From an uncultured delta proteobacterium (GTDB lineage: Bacteria; Desulfobacterota; Desulfobacteria; Desulfobacterales; UBA2156): DNA of 64,000 nucleotides. The stretch spans positions 32,001-96,000 of the forward strand of contig CAVTQK010000015.1 of the NCBI GenBank assembly GCA_963736855.1. The letters are read 5' to 3'. The translations under genes and the position numbers were made by a program. The notes under the pieces were generated by a model. The model made no database searches. It was given only the letters and a program-made list of their open reading frames with translations, and was not told the DNA's origin. Positions 29,932 through 46,666 of the stretch are shown in pieces (position 1 is the stretch's first letter; the number at the start of each line of letters is the position of its first letter).

Positions 29932-31851
29932 TCATTTCAGACAGCTTTCCACATTAGAAAGCAGCCCTTTGGTCGTCCATCGGAACTTGTCCATGAACAG
30001 CCGGTCGCTTAAGAAATATTCCTTTTTCTTCTGACGATCCAGATAATCTGAAAATTGCTGGGGTCCGCCGTTATACATGGCATAGACGACGCCGGCGACG
30101 GTTTCCTCGGTCATGAGGTCTTTTTGCTTCATTTGTTTGAGTTTGGGGAGGGCGTACTTGAGGAAGTAAAGATCGAGGATTTCGCATCCGGCAGCTGCAT
30201 TGTAATGGATATTCCACATCAGCAGGTTTAAATCGTAAATTCCGCGCCAGGCCCGTCTGTTGACTTGCATGATCCCCACAGAGGTCTGGTTGTAGGAGAG
30301 CAAATAAGTGATCTTCCCGCTTTCCATGACGAACTGCCGAAAGCAACTCTCCTGCCAGGCTGTGGAAAGGGTTAGTCGCTTGTAGAAATCGTGGTAGACA
30401 CGAGGCAGGGCGCTTTTTTTCAACAACGCCGAGGAGGCATGGGTCAAGAGATGTTCAACCTTCTGAATGTAAGATTCCGTTTCTCCGTCAGGGGGAAGCC
30501 AAATATCGAGGCGCGGGGATTTTGGTATCACTTTCTGGGTTTTTGCCCAGGCGGGTGCGACTGAAAAAAAAACCGACAGGACGGTCATGCTTCTTTCCCA
30601 TGGAGTCATGCTTGAGGTGTCTTGATTTAGGGGAACATCCGTTTCATCGGAGGGTCCGGTATCTTCTTCGAAATCCAAGGGGGGTGAAGCGGCAAGACCA
30701 AGGATTTCCCTGAGCTCCTGGCTGAATTGAAGACTATACTCCAAAAAGACCGGCTTTTTCCGACTGATTAGGCGTGCCAGCCGGATAAGGCCTTCCCGGC
30801 TGATCTCGATTCCCAGAGTCGGGCCGAGGCGATCCAGAGTTGCCAGGGCATCTGTCGCCGTGAAGAAGGCCAGGTAGGCCAATGTAAACTCCGAAGATTC
30901 GTGTCCGAGGTGGTTTCGAAAAACCGGAGAAAGCTTCTCCCAGGCTTTTACAAACTGCTCTCTCACGAGGTCTTTTTCCAGGGTTCTTTCAGTCAATTCC
31001 GTTGTGAATCGATAACGCGTGTCGAGGAGGGTTTCAAAGATCGTTTGGCGATCTTCCTCAGAAAGGGGTTTTCCGGAAAGAGACATGATCATGTAAACCA
31101 GGAAAGCGTCCCAGGTTTCCCAGTTTTCGATGATTTTTTTGATTTCTTTTTCCGATATAAAAATCGGCTTCTTTTTTGTCTTAATATCGTAAATTTCCTT
31201 TACATCCGCCAGGATATCGATTCGCACGGCCTGGGGTTCAATGCGTACATCCCCGAGGCGAAGACTTTTCAACAGTGCATCGATCCGGTCGGTTCTTTCT
31301 TCAGGTGCAACCGATGCAATGAACGATTTCATTTCATCGATGGGGGGTTTGAGATCCAGAACGATTCCGTCGATGTAATGGTGGATTTGCGTTTTAATCA
31401 GGTTCCAGACCATGTCGGTGACGGTTTGGAGCCGGTGTTTTTCATCATATATTTGAGAATCGACGGTCTGAAAGGTGAGTTTGAGATTCTGATGGTCCAC
31501 CTGAGGCCGAATGAGCAGCGTCAAATAGCCGACCCATTCGACGGGCATCAGGCAGTTGTTTCTAAAGAGGGCGCCTGTGCGGATCAGTGTCCGAGTCTCA
31601 CAACGCAACAACCCATTGGTTTCCGAAAAGACCGGGTCGGAAATACGGATGAAATTGCAGCCGTCCCCTTCATCCAGGACCACGGCGCTTTTACCAGGGC
31701 CTTTAAAAGCGTGGTAAACGACCAGGGACTCTAATAGCGGATAATCAATGGTGAGCGGAAGTGTGACGGCTTTCAGTTCGGTTCCGCCCGCCGCAGACAC
31801 CGCCAGAAGGATTGTGCAGAGACTTAAAATAAGAATTCGCAATCGCTTCAT
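29932..31851 (-). CDS. Secreted protein with C-terminal lytic transglycosylase (SLT) domain
   Basis: Signal peptide MKRLRILIL...; AWQESCF, GIMQVN, MYNGGP. Confidence 0.82.
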   Translation of the reverse strand: MKRLRILILSLCTILLAVSAAGGTELKAVTLPLTIDYPLLESLVVYHAFKGPGKSAVVLDEGDGCNFIRISDPVFSETNGLLRCETRTLIRTGALFRNNCLMPVEWVGYLTLLIRPQVDHQNLKLTFQTVDSQIYDEKHRLQTVTDMVWNLIKTQIHHYIDGIVLDLKPPIDEMKSFIASVAPEERTDRIDALLKSLRLGDVRIEPQAVRIDILADVKEIYDIKTKKKPIFISEKEIKKIIENWETWDAFLVYMIMSLSGKPLSEEDRQTIFETLLDTRYRFTTELTERTLEKDLVREQFVKAWEKLSPVFRNHLGHESSEFTLAYLAFFTATDALATLDRLGPTLGIEISREGLIRLARLISRKKPVFLEYSLQFSQELREILGLAASPPLDFEEDTGPSDETDVPLNQDTSSMTPWERSMTVLSVFFSVAPAWAKTQKVIPKSPRLDIWLPPDGETESYIQKVEHLLTHASSALLKKSALPRVYHDFYKRLTLSTAWQESCFRQFVMESGKITYLLSYNQTSVGIMQVNRRAWRGIYDLNLLMWNIHYNAAAGCEILDLYFLKYALPKLKQMKQKDLMTEETVAGVVYAMYNGGPQQFSDYLDRQKKKEYFLSDRLFMDKFRWTTKGLLSNVESCLK

Positions 31852-31859
31852 GAGGGGGC

Positions 31860-33128
31860 TCACAACCTCTGTGATAGATAGATATAGGCCGGCAGTCGAA
31901 CGGAACGCTTCAGTTTGTTGAAACAAGCCAGCGCCTCCGTTTTGGATTCCCGGCGGTCCAGGGGCGAAAAATAAAGGGCACCCTTGCCGAAAGACCGGTT
32001 CATGGTGTTTTGTGCAAAATTCAGCAACGACGGCAAATGGTCGGGAGGAAGGCGTTTCCCCAGGACGATGTTGGCGGTGATTTCGATATTCGGATACCGT
32101 TGATTAACCTCCAACATGCGTAAAAATGCCTCCTTGACCCGTGATACATCAACCGGTTTTTTTAACAACGCCAGGGTTTCAGGGTCCATGGATTCGAGAC
32201 CGAGATTGATGTAGGTGCGATAAGGGAGTCGGTTCAGGCTTTCAAACAGGGATTCCTCGGCCTTGAGCATGGCATCAACGCTGCCGAAAAGAAACAGCCA
32301 CGCATCCTTCAGGTACGATCGATCCAGTTCGAAGATATCGCAGGCATTTTCGGCGGCAAATATCAAAAGCTCTTTTCCGACCAAAAGGGCGTCATGCTGG
32401 CCTAAAAATACCGCATTGTAATTGGGAAGATCTTGGTCCAGAAACACCTTCATCCGTAACATTTGGGCCATAATGGCATTTTTACTCAGAGGTGTAAACG
32501 TATCCCGGGTTTTGAACCTGCAAAATCCGCAATGATAAAGGCAGCCCCGTGCTATGACGACCGGGATTACCGCATAATCGACATGGCGGGTATCCGGAGG
32601 AAGGATGGTAATCTTTTCACCGAGAATCCGATGGAAGCGCTCGGATCGATGCTTTAATGCGGCCTCGTTTGCGGTTGAGGCTTTCCGCAAAAAAGCCTTC
32701 AAGGGGAGCGGGAGATCCTGTCGGCTTAAAGTGTCGAGTTTTTCAAACAAAGGGTTCAGCCCGGACAGGGCATCTCGGACTGAGGGGGATACAAAGGGGC
32801 TATACCTGAAAAAGGGATTCTCATCGTAACTCAGACAAGGAAAATAATATTCTCCTGTGATATCAAAAATGTCGTTGTAGCTGCCGACGGAATAATAAAT
32901 CCAGTCGTTTCCCATGGTGCGTTTCAGCCATTCCGCTGGATGCGGCCAATCCCGATGGCGACCCTGAATGTATTTGATCTCTGCGTTGAGGTTGAACTGG
33001 ATCAGGTGTTTAGAAGTTCGAATTTCGTGGTATTGGCCGTGGCGCATGGGCACGCTGAGTTTAATATATTCGCGGACCCCTTCGCGGTTTAAAAATATGC
33101 TCAAATCATCGAAGGCGTACGCTGTCAT
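31860..33128 (-). CDS. Radical SAM protein with uncharacterised N-terminal domain
   Basis: CLYHCGFC motif, YINLGLES. Confidence 0.85.
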   Translation of the reverse strand: MTAYAFDDLSIFLNREGVREYIKLSVPMRHGQYHEIRTSKHLIQFNLNAEIKYIQGRHRDWPHPAEWLKRTMGNDWIYYSVGSYNDIFDITGEYYFPCLSYDENPFFRYSPFVSPSVRDALSGLNPLFEKLDTLSRQDLPLPLKAFLRKASTANEAALKHRSERFHRILGEKITILPPDTRHVDYAVIPVVIARGCLYHCGFCRFKTRDTFTPLSKNAIMAQMLRMKVFLDQDLPNYNAVFLGQHDALLVGKELLIFAAENACDIFELDRSYLKDAWLFLFGSVDAMLKAEESLFESLNRLPYRTYINLGLESMDPETLALLKKPVDVSRVKEAFLRMLEVNQRYPNIEITANIVLGKRLPPDHLPSLLNFAQNTMNRSFGKGALYFSPLDRRESKTEALACFNKLKRSVRLPAYIYLSQRL

Positions 33129-33188
33129 AGGCGCAGTTTTTTTGCTTCATTGCCGCCCGGTTTTATCCAGGATTTCTGTAATCCGATA

Positions 33189-33824
33189 TCAACCGGCATG
33201 CGTCGGCGTACCGTTGAGGATCGCTTCAAGGTCTTCCATGCGGTGGAGGTGATAGTCGGCGGACAGTGCCGCATTTTTATAGGCAATGAAGAAGACCCCA
33301 GCACCTTCAGCGGCTCGCGCATCGACATCCGAGTCCCCGACGTAGACGACCTGTCGGGGATCGGTCTGAAAATAAGTTAAAATCTTTTGCAGCTGCTCGG
33401 GGTGAGGTTTTGGGTTGACGACATCCCGGGCGCAAACGATCAGATCAAAATGGCCTGTCAGACCGTGCGATTTGATGACCGCATCCATGGTATCGGTGCG
33501 GTTGGTGGCGATGGCCGTCTTATAACGGGGCCTAAGTCGGGAAAGAAGTGGGAGCAGTCCTTTTTCCATTTCCATTTCCTGGATAAACGGACGGTAATCC
33601 ATCTGTCTGCGGAAGCGCTCCGCCGCTTGATGTTCCTCGTCGTCGGGAAACAGATAACGCATGGATGCCGCCACCGCATGTTTGTGCACGAATGCGAATT
33701 GTTCGGCTGTTATTTCCGGCTTTCCCAGGTGCTGGAGGACCGAGTTGTAATAGGCCCTATTGGCTCGATCGGTGTTGAAGAGGACTCCGTCACAATCAAA
33801 GACAACGATCTTGATACCTTTCAT
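33189..33824 (-). CDS. HAD-superfamily hydrolase (phosphoglycolate phosphatase-like)
   Basis: FDCDGVL, ATNR, KPHP, YVGDS..D; start overlaps the upstream stop (ATGA). Confidence 0.92.
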   Translation of the reverse strand: MKGIKIVVFDCDGVLFNTDRANRAYYNSVLQHLGKPEITAEQFAFVHKHAVAASMRYLFPDDEEHQAAERFRRQMDYRPFIQEMEMEKGLLPLLSRLRPRYKTAIATNRTDTMDAVIKSHGLTGHFDLIVCARDVVNPKPHPEQLQKILTYFQTDPRQVVYVGDSDVDARAAEGAGVFFIAYKNAALSADYHLHRMEDLEAILNGTPTHAG

Positions 33825-34561
33825 TGAGTTGTTTCTTCTTTTCCAGGCAGAGGATCGGACAGCTCTCCATAGACCCATATCCGGATCTCCGGGCGCATGT
33901 TCAGGTCGGTGGGAAAGACGACGACTTCATGATAAGTCCCTTTGGCAGCCTGGTTGTTGATAACCGTCAGCAGGTATTCTTCGGTCGTTTCGCTTTGGAT
34001 TTTCTCCAGGGAATAGGTGACGTTTTTACCCTTGGCATCGGCGAGTTCCGCAAGGGTGAATGGATATTTTTTCTCGGGAATGATGCGGACTGTACCCTTG
34101 ATGGGAAAGCCTGCCGGTCCTCGCAAAATGATCCTGGCCGGTGTGATGGAAGCGAACTTTTCAACGGTTCCTTCGATAACGAAGGCGATATAGGGTTTAT
34201 GGGTGTCGTTGGTGGAAATAATCACCTGCTTGGCCACCCGTCTGCCGCCGTAGCCATAAGTGTTGATTTTTACGGTGATCTGTCCCTCGCCGCCGGGAGG
34301 GATTTGCCTCGAATACGAGGCCGCCGTACACCCTCAGTCTGTTCTGACGTTGAATATTTTCAGTTCTTCGTTTCCCTTGTTGAAAATCTTGAATTGGTGG
34401 TCCACCTCAAGGCCCTCAAGGACGGTGCGGAACACGTGCTTTGGGTTAGGTGCGACCGCATCGGGTCCTTTCAATGCAGGGGAATCTTTTGCAAAAACGG
34501 TTTGAATCGTCAAAATGGCTAATAATGCCGCCAAAATCAGCATGGTTTTTTTTACTTGCAT
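33821..34561 (-). CDS. Secreted DUF1573/Ig-like protein, probable selenoprotein (TGA codon 76 at 34334-34336)
   Basis: Track ORFs 34334-34561 and 33821-34237 are in one frame, joined by TGA + 32 sense codons: F.N.G...L.I.NVRTD-U-GCTAASYSRQIPPGGEGQITV. Confidence 0.82.
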
Positions 34562-34744
34562 TCAACAGGCTCCTTATCCGGTGAAGCATTCATCGTAGAC
34601 AGGCTATACGGCTTCAACTTCCTTTTCTTTTTATCTTTACCAATAAAGAGTGGATCTGACAAGGCTGTCTTTGATCTTTATTTTCCGACAGATACCTTCC
34701 GCCGGTTGGAAACTTGCGCCCTCTGACCCGAGCCTTGAACCGGA

Positions 34745-37204
34745 TCACATTAGGTCATAGGGATCCACGTCGATGATCACCTGGACGCCGGGAGGCGGAC
34801 GCATTCCCTTGCCATGGATCATCAAATCCGAAACAAACCGATTCAGTGTGGAGACTTTCCGGCTTTTTAAAAGGATATGCCATCGGAATCGGCCGGCGAT
34901 TTTAGAAAGCGGTGCTTCTATGGGACCCAATACCATTAATTCTTGCATACGGGCTTTGGTTCCGGTTTTCAGGCCGCGACACGCCGATCCCAGCTCCACG
35001 GCCCACTTTCGGGTCTTGTCCACATCTTTCCCCGATACCTTGAAGGCGATGATACGGGAAAACGGCGGATAGTCTAAAGACTTGCGGAACCGAATCTCCT
35101 GGTTATAAAAACGTTTAAAATCCTGGTCTCTGGCTGAGATAATGCTGAAATGGTCGGGGTTGAAGGTCTGAAGGATCACCCGGCCGGGTTGATCACCGCG
35201 GCCGGCCCTGCCGGAGACTTGGGCGAGTACCTGGAAGGTCCGTTCCGATGCCCTGAAGTCGGGGAAATTCAAAGATGAATCCGCGCAGATGATCCCCACC
35301 AGGGTGATATTCGGGAAATCGTGGCCCTTGGCGACGATCTGCGTGCCGATCAGGATATCGATAGCTCCGGTTTTCAACTCCGTCAGCAGTGACAGAAGTG
35401 ATCCTTTCTTTCGCGTGGTGTCCCGGTCCATCCGAGCCACATTCGCCTCAGGAAACAGGGTCTTAACGGCGGCTTCCAGTTTTTCTGTGCCCATTCCCAA
35501 GTTTTTAATCGTTCCGGACCCGCAAAGATCGCACGGACCGTCGGCCTGCCGGGTGTATCCACAATAATGGCAGACATGGAGGTTGTCGCCTTTATGATAG
35601 GTCAAAGAGATATCGCAGTGTCGGCAGGTGACCGGCTTCCCGCAAACCATACAAATCGGAAAACCGGCGAACCCCCGGCGATTGAGAAAAAGGAGGACCT
35701 GCTCGCCCTTGTCGAGGGTTTGTTTCATGGCGCTGACAAGCGCATCCGTTAAATGGCGACGGGCGCCGCGTCGGTGTCGGGATTCCTTTAAATCCACCAC
35801 CGTCACTTCCGGAAGCTTTCGCTCTTCAATTCGGCCGGGTAACTCCAAACCAACGAACTTCCGGGCTCGGACGTTAAAGTGGGACTGAATCGACGGAGTT
35901 GCGGATCCCAAAAGCGCGATGCTCTTTCCGAGCATGGCCCGAACCACCGCCAGATCCCTGGCCTGGTAGTGGAGGTCCGTTTCCTGTTTGTAGGATGTGT
36001 CATGCTCCTCGTCGACGATGATCAGACCGATGCGTTTGAGAGGGGCAAAAACAGCCGATCTGGCACCGATGGTCAGATGAGCGTCTCCTTTGAGGATGCG
36101 CATCCACTGGTCGCGGCGTTCACCCTTAGACAGGCCGCTGTGCAGTACTGCCACCTGGTTGCCGAATCGCGCCCGAAAGCGCCTTTCCGTCTGGGATATC
36201 AGGGCGATCTCAGGGACCAGGATCAGGGTGGATTGGCCACGGTTCAGGGCTTCCGCCGCCAGATGCATATACACCTCGGTTTTTCCGCTTCCGGTCACTC
36301 CTGCGAGCAGGAAGGTCTGATACCCCTTTCCCATAGCCGAAAGGACCGCTGTAACTGCGCTTTCCTGGGAATCGGTCAAACGAAGCTCCCGATCCGGTGC
36401 GACAGGTTCACCGAAGGGGTCCCGATAAGCTGTTTTGGAATAGACCCGTATCCAGCCCTCCCTTTCCAGAGATGGGATCAGGCGTGAAGCATTCCGGACA
36501 ATATCAAAAAGCGCTCGAACCGGTGCCTCCTTGAGATCTTCGAGGGCGGAAAGGATTTGTTTCTTAGCCTTGGAAATCTTGCTTGTGGATGGGAGCGGAT
36601 TGACCAGAGCGACGTATCGTTCCTGTTTGACCCCTACGGGCCCTTTGAGCACCTTTTCCTTTTGGATCCAGCCGAGATTTTTCAGGGGGTGTAACCGGGC
36701 TTCTCGAAAGCGATTCTTCAGGATCTGCTTAAAAGTGGTGGGCTTCACAGGGCCGGTTTTCAAAAGGCCTAATATGTGCAGGTCCTCCGGATTCGCATCC
36801 CCGGATTCCAGAATGCTGCGCCCTTTTTCAGTCAGAGAAACCATGTCCAGATCATGCACGGCGATGCCGGATGGAAGGGCGCACGCGACGACTTCTCCTA
36901 CAGGGTGCAGGTAATATTCGGAGATCCATTTGAAAAACGGGACCATATCCGACGGAAAGAGAGGAAGCGGGTCCAGCACATCCAGAATCGACTTGATCTC
37001 GAGAGATTCGATGCTTTCAGAGGTTCCCAGGATATATCCGCTCAGACGCCGCCGGCCAAAGGGAACCAGGACCTTTACCCCCGGTTCAACGGCTCCTATG
37101 GAAGCGTTGGGAATCCGGTAGGTAAAGGTCTGGTGAACCGGAAGAGGAATCGCGACCTCGACGAAGGTTGATCCAGGATGTTCGGGTTTTTTCTTGACTT
37201 GCAT
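34745..37204 (-). CDS. priA: Primosomal protein N'
   Basis: GVTGSGKTEVY, DEEHD, SATPS, LNRRG, four CxxC pairs, QVSGRAGR. Confidence 0.97.
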   Translation of the reverse strand: MQVKKKPEHPGSTFVEVAIPLPVHQTFTYRIPNASIGAVEPGVKVLVPFGRRRLSGYILGTSESIESLEIKSILDVLDPLPLFPSDMVPFFKWISEYYLHPVGEVVACALPSGIAVHDLDMVSLTEKGRSILESGDANPEDLHILGLLKTGPVKPTTFKQILKNRFREARLHPLKNLGWIQKEKVLKGPVGVKQERYVALVNPLPSTSKISKAKKQILSALEDLKEAPVRALFDIVRNASRLIPSLEREGWIRVYSKTAYRDPFGEPVAPDRELRLTDSQESAVTAVLSAMGKGYQTFLLAGVTGSGKTEVYMHLAAEALNRGQSTLILVPEIALISQTERRFRARFGNQVAVLHSGLSKGERRDQWMRILKGDAHLTIGARSAVFAPLKRIGLIIVDEEHDTSYKQETDLHYQARDLAVVRAMLGKSIALLGSATPSIQSHFNVRARKFVGLELPGRIEERKLPEVTVVDLKESRHRRGARRHLTDALVSAMKQTLDKGEQVLLFLNRRGFAGFPICMVCGKPVTCRHCDISLTYHKGDNLHVCHYCGYTRQADGPCDLCGSGTIKNLGMGTEKLEAAVKTLFPEANVARMDRDTTRKKGSLLSLLTELKTGAIDILIGTQIVAKGHDFPNITLVGIICADSSLNFPDFRASERTFQVLAQVSGRAGRGDQPGRVILQTFNPDHFSIISARDQDFKRFYNQEIRFRKSLDYPPFSRIIAFKVSGKDVDKTRKWAVELGSACRGLKTGTKARMQELMVLGPIEAPLSKIAGRFRWHILLKSRKVSTLNRFVSDLMIHGKGMRPPPGVQVIIDVDPYDLM

Positions 37205-37296
37205 CAGTGGATCTCTTAGCAATCCTTTATGGCTTTATAACCGAAAAGATTCCACTCTTTTATCCGGGAAGGCATATTTCTTTGGACCTTTGTCTT

Positions 37297-46240: not shown

Positions 46241-46360
46241 AAATTTGATTATCAAACCGCTTGCAAGAGGCTCTTCAATAGTATTGAAATAAAAATTCGG
46301 AGCGTATAGAGGATTTTTAAGAGGAATTCATGTTTCTATTGGTATATGAAAGGAGGGGCC

Positions 46361-46666
46361 ATGCTTTCCAAAGAACAAAACGACGCTTACAGGACATTTT
46401 ACCAATCGGCACGGCAAAATCCAACCCTGGATCCCAAGACCACCCTCCTGGTGCATGTGGCCACGGCCATGGCCATCGGGTGTTATCCCTGAGTACGCAA
46501 CTACCTTGGCGTGGCCAAGGCTGAGGGGATAACTGAAAAGGAGATCGGTGCGGTGCAGGCCATCGTGATGGCGGTTTCTGCAGGGAGGATAAATGCCCAG
46601 CTTCGAGAGATCCGGGAAATCGATGAGGAGGCTCGAAAGAAGGAGATGTCCCAGATCACCCCGTAG
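46361..46666 (+). CDS. AhpD/carboxymuconolactone decarboxylase-family selenoprotein (C41-Y-P-U44; TGA 46490-46492); not in ORF track
   Basis: RBS AGGAGG; MLSKEQ...LDPKTTLLVHVATAMAIGCYP-U-VRNYLGVAKAEGITEKEI...; hairpin CCTTGGC-GTG-GCCAAGG 11 nt after the TGA. Confidence 0.88.

Follow-up and report, generated by a model that had tools for sequence, protein, structure and literature searches.

An intact OS_HP2 (DUF1573) selenoprotein gene behind an in-frame TGA in a Desulfobacterales genome, with a predicted role in periplasmic thiol-disulfide exchange

The OS_HP2 family was named as a predicted selenoprotein family by Zhang and Gladyshev in 2007 (PMC1976440), and a "DUF1573 domain-containing protein" with the motif UGC is tabulated in PMC9312934 and PMC13188914, both of which cite the 2007 paper. 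In the accessible parts of these sources, PMC13188914 files the DUF1573-UGC family as predicted, not experimentally verified, and considers most such selenoproteins likely to be redox proteins. Our literature search on periplasmic Ig selenoproteins returned nothing on the OS_HP2 family. The literature found on DUF1573 consisted of selenoprotein reviews and proteome or transcriptome tables, none giving a function, and no experimental study of OS_HP2 came up in the search; subscription papers and supplements may hold more. Two Ig-fold systems were used for comparison. [quoted passage not shown]

The stretch of DNA that we analysed (the window, 64,000 nucleotides) contains a minus-strand frame that runs from ATG 34561-34559 to the stop TGA 33823-33821 and encodes 246 residues with a single internal TGA, which bears out the one-frame reading of the first-pass annotation; that annotation did not give the strand. 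The features of the gene are as follows.

33821..34561, minus strand: OS_HP2/DUF1573 selenoprotein gene, 246 aa, Sec at residue 76 (frame and family profiles)
34334..34336, minus strand: in-frame TGA, selenocysteine 76 (codon 76), context NVRTD-U-GCT
34328..34330, minus strand: Cys78, sole cysteine of the protein (column invariant in the 37-row alignment)
34490..34561, minus strand: probable cleavable (SPI-type) signal peptide, residues 1-24 (read by eye)
34570..34575, minus strand: Shine-Dalgarno-like AAGGAG, 8 nt before the ATG (sequence)

Gene calling with table 11 cuts this gene in two, leaving one ORF of 75 aa (34334-34561) and another of 138 aa (33821-34237), and the database entry P0002 is the 138-aa C-terminal piece. 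U76 and C78 of the U76-G77-C78 motif are the only chalcogen residues of the protein, and neither column varies in the 37-row alignment when TGA is read as C. A plus-strand ORF of 232 aa (33824-34522) was rejected as an antisense shadow, the family match falling on the minus strand. A promoter and terminator scan of 31500-35000 gave counts at shuffle level, and only 0.05 of the words occurred in the two RNA runs.

The protein matched NCBIfam NF041425 (OS_HP2 family (seleno)protein) with 125.6 bits (cut-off 100, residues 38-134) and Pfam DUF1573 (PF07610) with 66 bits (cut-off 26.1, residues 40-132), and the gene is almost certainly an intact member of the OS_HP2 (DUF1573, UGC) selenoprotein family. 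It shares with the family the domain, the UGC motif, the single Sec, the downstream stem-loop and the bacterial group, and no family-level difference was found. The first-pass annotation had placed the protein outside the classical selenoprotein families, which is wrong, because NF041425 was matched over its cut-off and the family was predicted in 2007 (accessible text of PMC1976440). Since OS_HP2 is already catalogued, our finding is a correct fix of the annotation rather than a new family.

The TGA codon was then compared with assembled contigs of three studies (runs X1, X4 and X5) that span it and have 8, 22 and 23 other letters, respectively. No difference or indel was seen at 34275-34366 among the differences listed (7 others are not listed), so a sequence error at the codon found no support in this comparison, which used contigs, not raw reads, and in which X1 may be the source sample. 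The Sec machinery is complete in the genome: selA (523.5 bits), selB (381.4 bits) and selD (373.9 bits) were all above their cut-offs, selD itself having one TGA, and tRNA-Sec(TCA), that is selC, was detected on contig C21 by ARAGORN.

Of the 151 genomes sampled from the order, 143 had a match to NF041425, which was over the cut-off in 136. The best 150 matches listed (77 more exist) comprised 128 with one TGA, 1 with TGA and TAG and 21 without a stop, so the TGA is not private to this genome but occurs in at least 128 one-TGA matches across the order. Sampling of the whole phylum gave matches in 49 of 121 genomes, among them both TGA and open copies, and the named relatives were mostly Desulfobacterales. 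Once 10 duplicate loci had been removed, loci L006-L137 yielded 124 distinct copies, which were pooled. The codons at the Sec column were 102 TGA, 17 TGC, 4 TGT and 1 TCT, a Sec:Cys ratio which is not the natural frequency, because 20 regions were chosen for having no stop. The TGA thus stands in a column that holds Cys in 21 homologs, as the earlier annotation had claimed from the domain motif. In a midpoint-rooted FastTree tree, taken without its support values, the Cys copies fell in several separate places, mostly with a decayed hairpin. Loss of the Sec machinery was rejected as the origin of the Cys copies at the priA-HAD locus, where selA was kept in 5/5 of such genomes tested. In one copy (L121) the Sec column holds Ser (TCT), and the motif reads S-G-C. 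Sec is therefore not indispensable, since Cys replaces it in genomes that keep selA and Ser replaces it in L121. Tandem pairs of a Sec copy and a Cys copy were seen at the HAD locus in L016 and L059, and two database proteins (P0004 and P0006) have Trp at the Sec column, possibly from a gene caller's reading of TGA as Trp.

Two hairpins follow the TGA at the positions that had been described from the sequence.

34306..34321, minus strand: SECIS hairpin 1, nt 13-28 after the UGA (12-nt spacer), compensatory pairs in Sec copies
34283..34302, minus strand: SECIS hairpin 2, nt 32-51 after the UGA, GGC apical loop

The fold in this gene alone was modest: z was -2.39 over 77 nt, where 3 of 200 shuffles did as well, and -0.56 when the fold was limited to the first 47 nt. 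Among relatives the hairpins exceeded chance by far. The 5-bp core of hairpin 1 was complete in 91/102 TGA copies vs 1/21 Cys copies, and synonymous re-coding of the same peptides gave an expectation of 2.4 (maximum 8 in 500), as against the 91 observed. Two of its pairs alternate between U-A and C-G among copies. All six pairs of hairpin 2 were complete in 54/102 TGA copies, where 2.0 were expected, and in 0/21 Cys copies; its four basal pairs were complete in 93/102 vs 4/21. These counts include related copies, which are not independent of each other. The hairpins are under selection in TGA copies only.

Neither hairpin is a plain case of the bacterial SECIS consensus, which in the accessible text of PMC13188914 requires one of the first two loop positions to be G, 16-37 nt from the UGA. 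Hairpin 1 fits here only if six bases, the first of them G, are taken as its loop, and that G occurs in 21/102 TGA copies. The GGC loop of hairpin 2 sits 39 nt from the UGA, just beyond the consensus range, and conservation of its loop Gs is not independent evidence, because the PPGGEG peptide also fixes them. Canonical SECIS elements are found in 87.4% of bacterial selenoprotein entries, the rest being unexplained (PMC13326102), and in our literature search no description of a second SECIS stem-loop from these bacteria came up. Short contig pieces of other organisms (runs X1 and X2) match only the stretch of UGA and hairpins (34283-34337), which makes it the most conserved DNA of the gene. 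A genome-wide screen for TGA read-through gave 175 candidates, mostly false, and those listed included a few known selenoproteins with G-containing loops.

The window has another candidate selenoprotein, an AhpD/CMD-like frame at 46346-46666 (plus strand) with a TGA at 46490-46492 in a C-x-x-U motif and a downstream hairpin with a GUG loop. It matched the NCBIfam AhpD-type selenoprotein models below cut-off; the AhpD-type class is listed in the accessible part of PMC13188914.

The N-terminus of the OS_HP2 protein, judged by eye, has a basic start, a hydrophobic stretch and a V-F-A site after residue 24, and is without a lipobox Cys. In 4 of the 30 loci L008-L037 (L018, L022, L023 and L035), an N-terminal OmpA-family domain of the cell-wall-binding type is fused ahead of a Sec-containing OS_HP2, and these fusions support a periplasmic location. 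The export that had been proposed earlier is thus probable. The rest of the protein is predicted to form two domains.

34160..34450, minus strand: domain 1, DUF1573/NF041425, ASH/PapD-like Ig fold with U-G-C (profiles and predicted structure)
33848..34159, minus strand: domain 2, ASH/PapD-like Ig domain without cysteine (structure search)

Modelled with AlphaFold2 (37 rows, U as C; pLDDT 93.5), the mature protein was all-beta and formed two domains. Its U-G-C motif (model residues 52-54, entered as C-G-C) is in a loop of four residues between strands 43-50 and 55-59 (DSSP). Both domains match ASH/PapD folds (HYDIN, CEP192, VesB, pilus chaperones). The best match of domain 1 was 2QSV (Z 14.1, rmsd 3.4, 105 aligned); VesB (Z 12.1) and ASH/PapD-like domains of HYDIN and CEP192 matched as well, and domain 2 alone gave weaker matches of the same class (best Z 9.2, rmsd 2.9, 98 aligned). 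2QSV is a Porphyromonas gingivalis protein of unknown function whose two domains both match (Z 8.1 for domain 2), but it has no cysteines at the aligned motif and is only 12-16% identical to OS_HP2 in sequence. The fold therefore does not need the U-G-C motif. A PDB sequence search with the single protein gave nothing significant (best E 0.41), and with the alignment it gave 2QSV alone (E 0.035). Among the 50 matches listed for each of the two fold searches, neither CsgC nor the DsbD N-terminal domain appeared.

The neighbourhood of the gene has two conserved members.

33189..33824, minus strand: HAD-family hydrolase, downstream, conserved neighbour (family scan)
34745..37222, minus strand: priA, upstream, conserved neighbour (name from motifs, not from a family scan)

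The probable ATG of the HAD gene overlaps the OS_HP2 stop (ATGA), and a HAD gene lies within 300 nt downstream in 87/102 Sec copies. The upstream gene, which we take to be priA from its motifs, was found in 41/80 loci (flanks up to 5 kb, some shorter). Beyond the HAD gene, 29932-33128 (minus strand) holds a radical SAM gene and the gene of a probably exported protein of 664 aa, which has a weak SLT transglycosylase match at its C-terminus; neither is conserved beside OS_HP2 (0/80 and 1/80 loci, respectively). At the main orthologous locus, with priA upstream and a cytoplasmic HAD hydrolase downstream, there is no redox neighbour.

Redox neighbours exist at other copies, namely at the second Sec copy (thioredoxin, DsbD/CcdA-type), at the Cys copies that adjoin hdrA and at one copy after a rhodanese gene. 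The second copy in this genome (L007:1162-1863, minus strand, on G000 contig C23) has one TGA, with a thioredoxin gene on one side, a DsbD/CcdA-type membrane gene on the other and small thioredoxin-like genes (MTH895/ArsE-family) nearby; its hairpin 1 is degenerate (3/5 pairs) and its hairpin 2 is retained. The hdrA gene adjoins 8/21 Cys copies vs 0/102 Sec copies, in flanks whose lengths differ from 1.5 to 5 kb. HdrA is cytoplasmic and so is a poor fit as the partner of an exported protein. The hdrA-adjoining Cys paralogs (L024, L118, L119, L122, L125, L126, L133 and L134) are mostly in one clade, and that of L119 also adjoins an IscA/HesB-family gene. At L131:2692-3978 (minus strand), a Cys-type domain lies in frame behind a membrane segment with a weak BT_3928 match, presumably MauE/DoxX-like, with a rhodanese gene before it and a thioredoxin-like gene after it.

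OS_HP2 is, in the reading that we prefer and hold to be somewhat probable, a predicted periplasmic selenol/thiol-disulfide exchange protein that acts like CsgC or the DsbD N-terminal domain. SelB with Sec-tRNA would read UGA76 by means of the in-frame SECIS, and the protein would be exported to the periplasm and form two ASH/PapD-like Ig domains. In an exposed loop, U76 and C78 would alternate between the selenol/thiol and a strained selenenylsulfide, so that disulfides (or persulfides) of envelope proteins could be reduced or reshuffled, as by CsgC and the DsbD N-terminal domain. The Ig surfaces would bind the clients, and electrons would come from a CcdA/DsbD and thioredoxin relay.

The likeness to CsgC lies in a periplasmic Ig-like beta-sandwich with an invariant CxC, for which a redox couple was measured in CsgC, while export of OS_HP2 was judged by eye and from the OmpA fusions. 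CsgC, however, is a single domain with Cys only, belongs to a curli operon and has its motif joining the BC loop to strand C, whereas OS_HP2 has two ASH/PapD-like domains and Sec, with no curli context seen (CsgC from the accessible text of PMC3173608). The motif position does not match either: in CsgC the motif precedes the third main strand, whereas U-G-C follows it (our strand labels). OS_HP2 may work like CsgC, but it is not a CsgC. With the DsbD N-terminal domain it would share a periplasmic Ig fold that carries a redox-active cysteine pair, and one paralog adjoins DsbD/CcdA membrane domain and thioredoxin genes. The DsbD domain has a Cx5C in the FG loop and is fused to a membrane domain (same source and extent), whereas OS_HP2 is a free UxC protein. 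We tentatively suggest, as a more speculative proposal, that OS_HP2 is a selenium-based catalyst of periplasmic disulfide/persulfide exchange on an ASH/PapD scaffold, of an evolutionary origin independent of CsgC and DsbD and near-universal in Desulfobacterales. Its UGA would be recoded by a two-hairpin SECIS, with hairpin 1 as the spacer through which SelB can reach the G-loop of hairpin 2, 39 nt away.

The lack of a redox neighbour at the main locus is the strongest point against the redox reading, and other explanations were weighed against it. Soft metals are bound by selenolate/thiolate pairs, so U76 and C78 would suit as ligands in a periplasmic protein that binds or sequesters Hg, Cu or As, and the MTH895/ArsE-family genes near the second copy point the same way. 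We regard this as unlikely, since no metal transporter or regulator was among the conserved neighbours in 90 loci and presence in nearly every sampled genome of the order (143/151) suits housekeeping more than resistance. It is distinctly unlikely that the protein is a PapD/ASH-type envelope scaffold or chaperone in which the U-C bond is structural or regulatory, not catalytic. The folds of both domains, the motif-free 2QSV and the OmpA fusions would all agree with such a scaffold, but order-wide Sec with two selected hairpins is costly for a structural bond, and Sec usually marks a catalytic site, most such proteins being likely redox (accessible text of PMC13188914).

A periplasmic carrier of sulfane sulfur or selenium, serving persulfide/polysulfide handling in sulfate reducers, could be imagined from the Cys paralogs that adjoin hdrA clusters and a rhodanese gene. 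We give it a slim chance, because hdrA was in 0/102 Sec-copy flanks (1.5 to 5 kb) and the conserved neighbours of the main locus include no sulfurtransferase. The gene callers' split of the frame and the C-terminal piece in the databases (P0002) would also be expected if the TGA were a true stop, in a pseudogene, a split gene or an assembly error. This we find hardly credible, given that 102 distinct copies whose frames are intact all have their TGA in one column, that the hairpins are specific to TGA copies, that the Sec machinery is complete and that the TGA region is unchanged in the contigs of three studies.

The repair of this gene matters because OS_HP2 is split by standard callers in most genomes of a large sulfate-reducing order, and the biology of OS_HP2 has so far been known by prediction only. 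The accessible texts on OS_HP2 contain neither a fold nor a location, a neighbourhood or a drawing of the SECIS; we add the Ig-fold domains, the inferred location, the gene neighbourhood, the OmpA fusions, the Cys paralogs and the two-hairpin SECIS. If the redox reading holds, the few known Ig-fold catalysts (CsgC and the DsbD N-terminal domain) would be joined by one that uses selenium, and the two-hairpin SECIS of OS_HP2 would be a testable model for SECIS elements outside the consensus.
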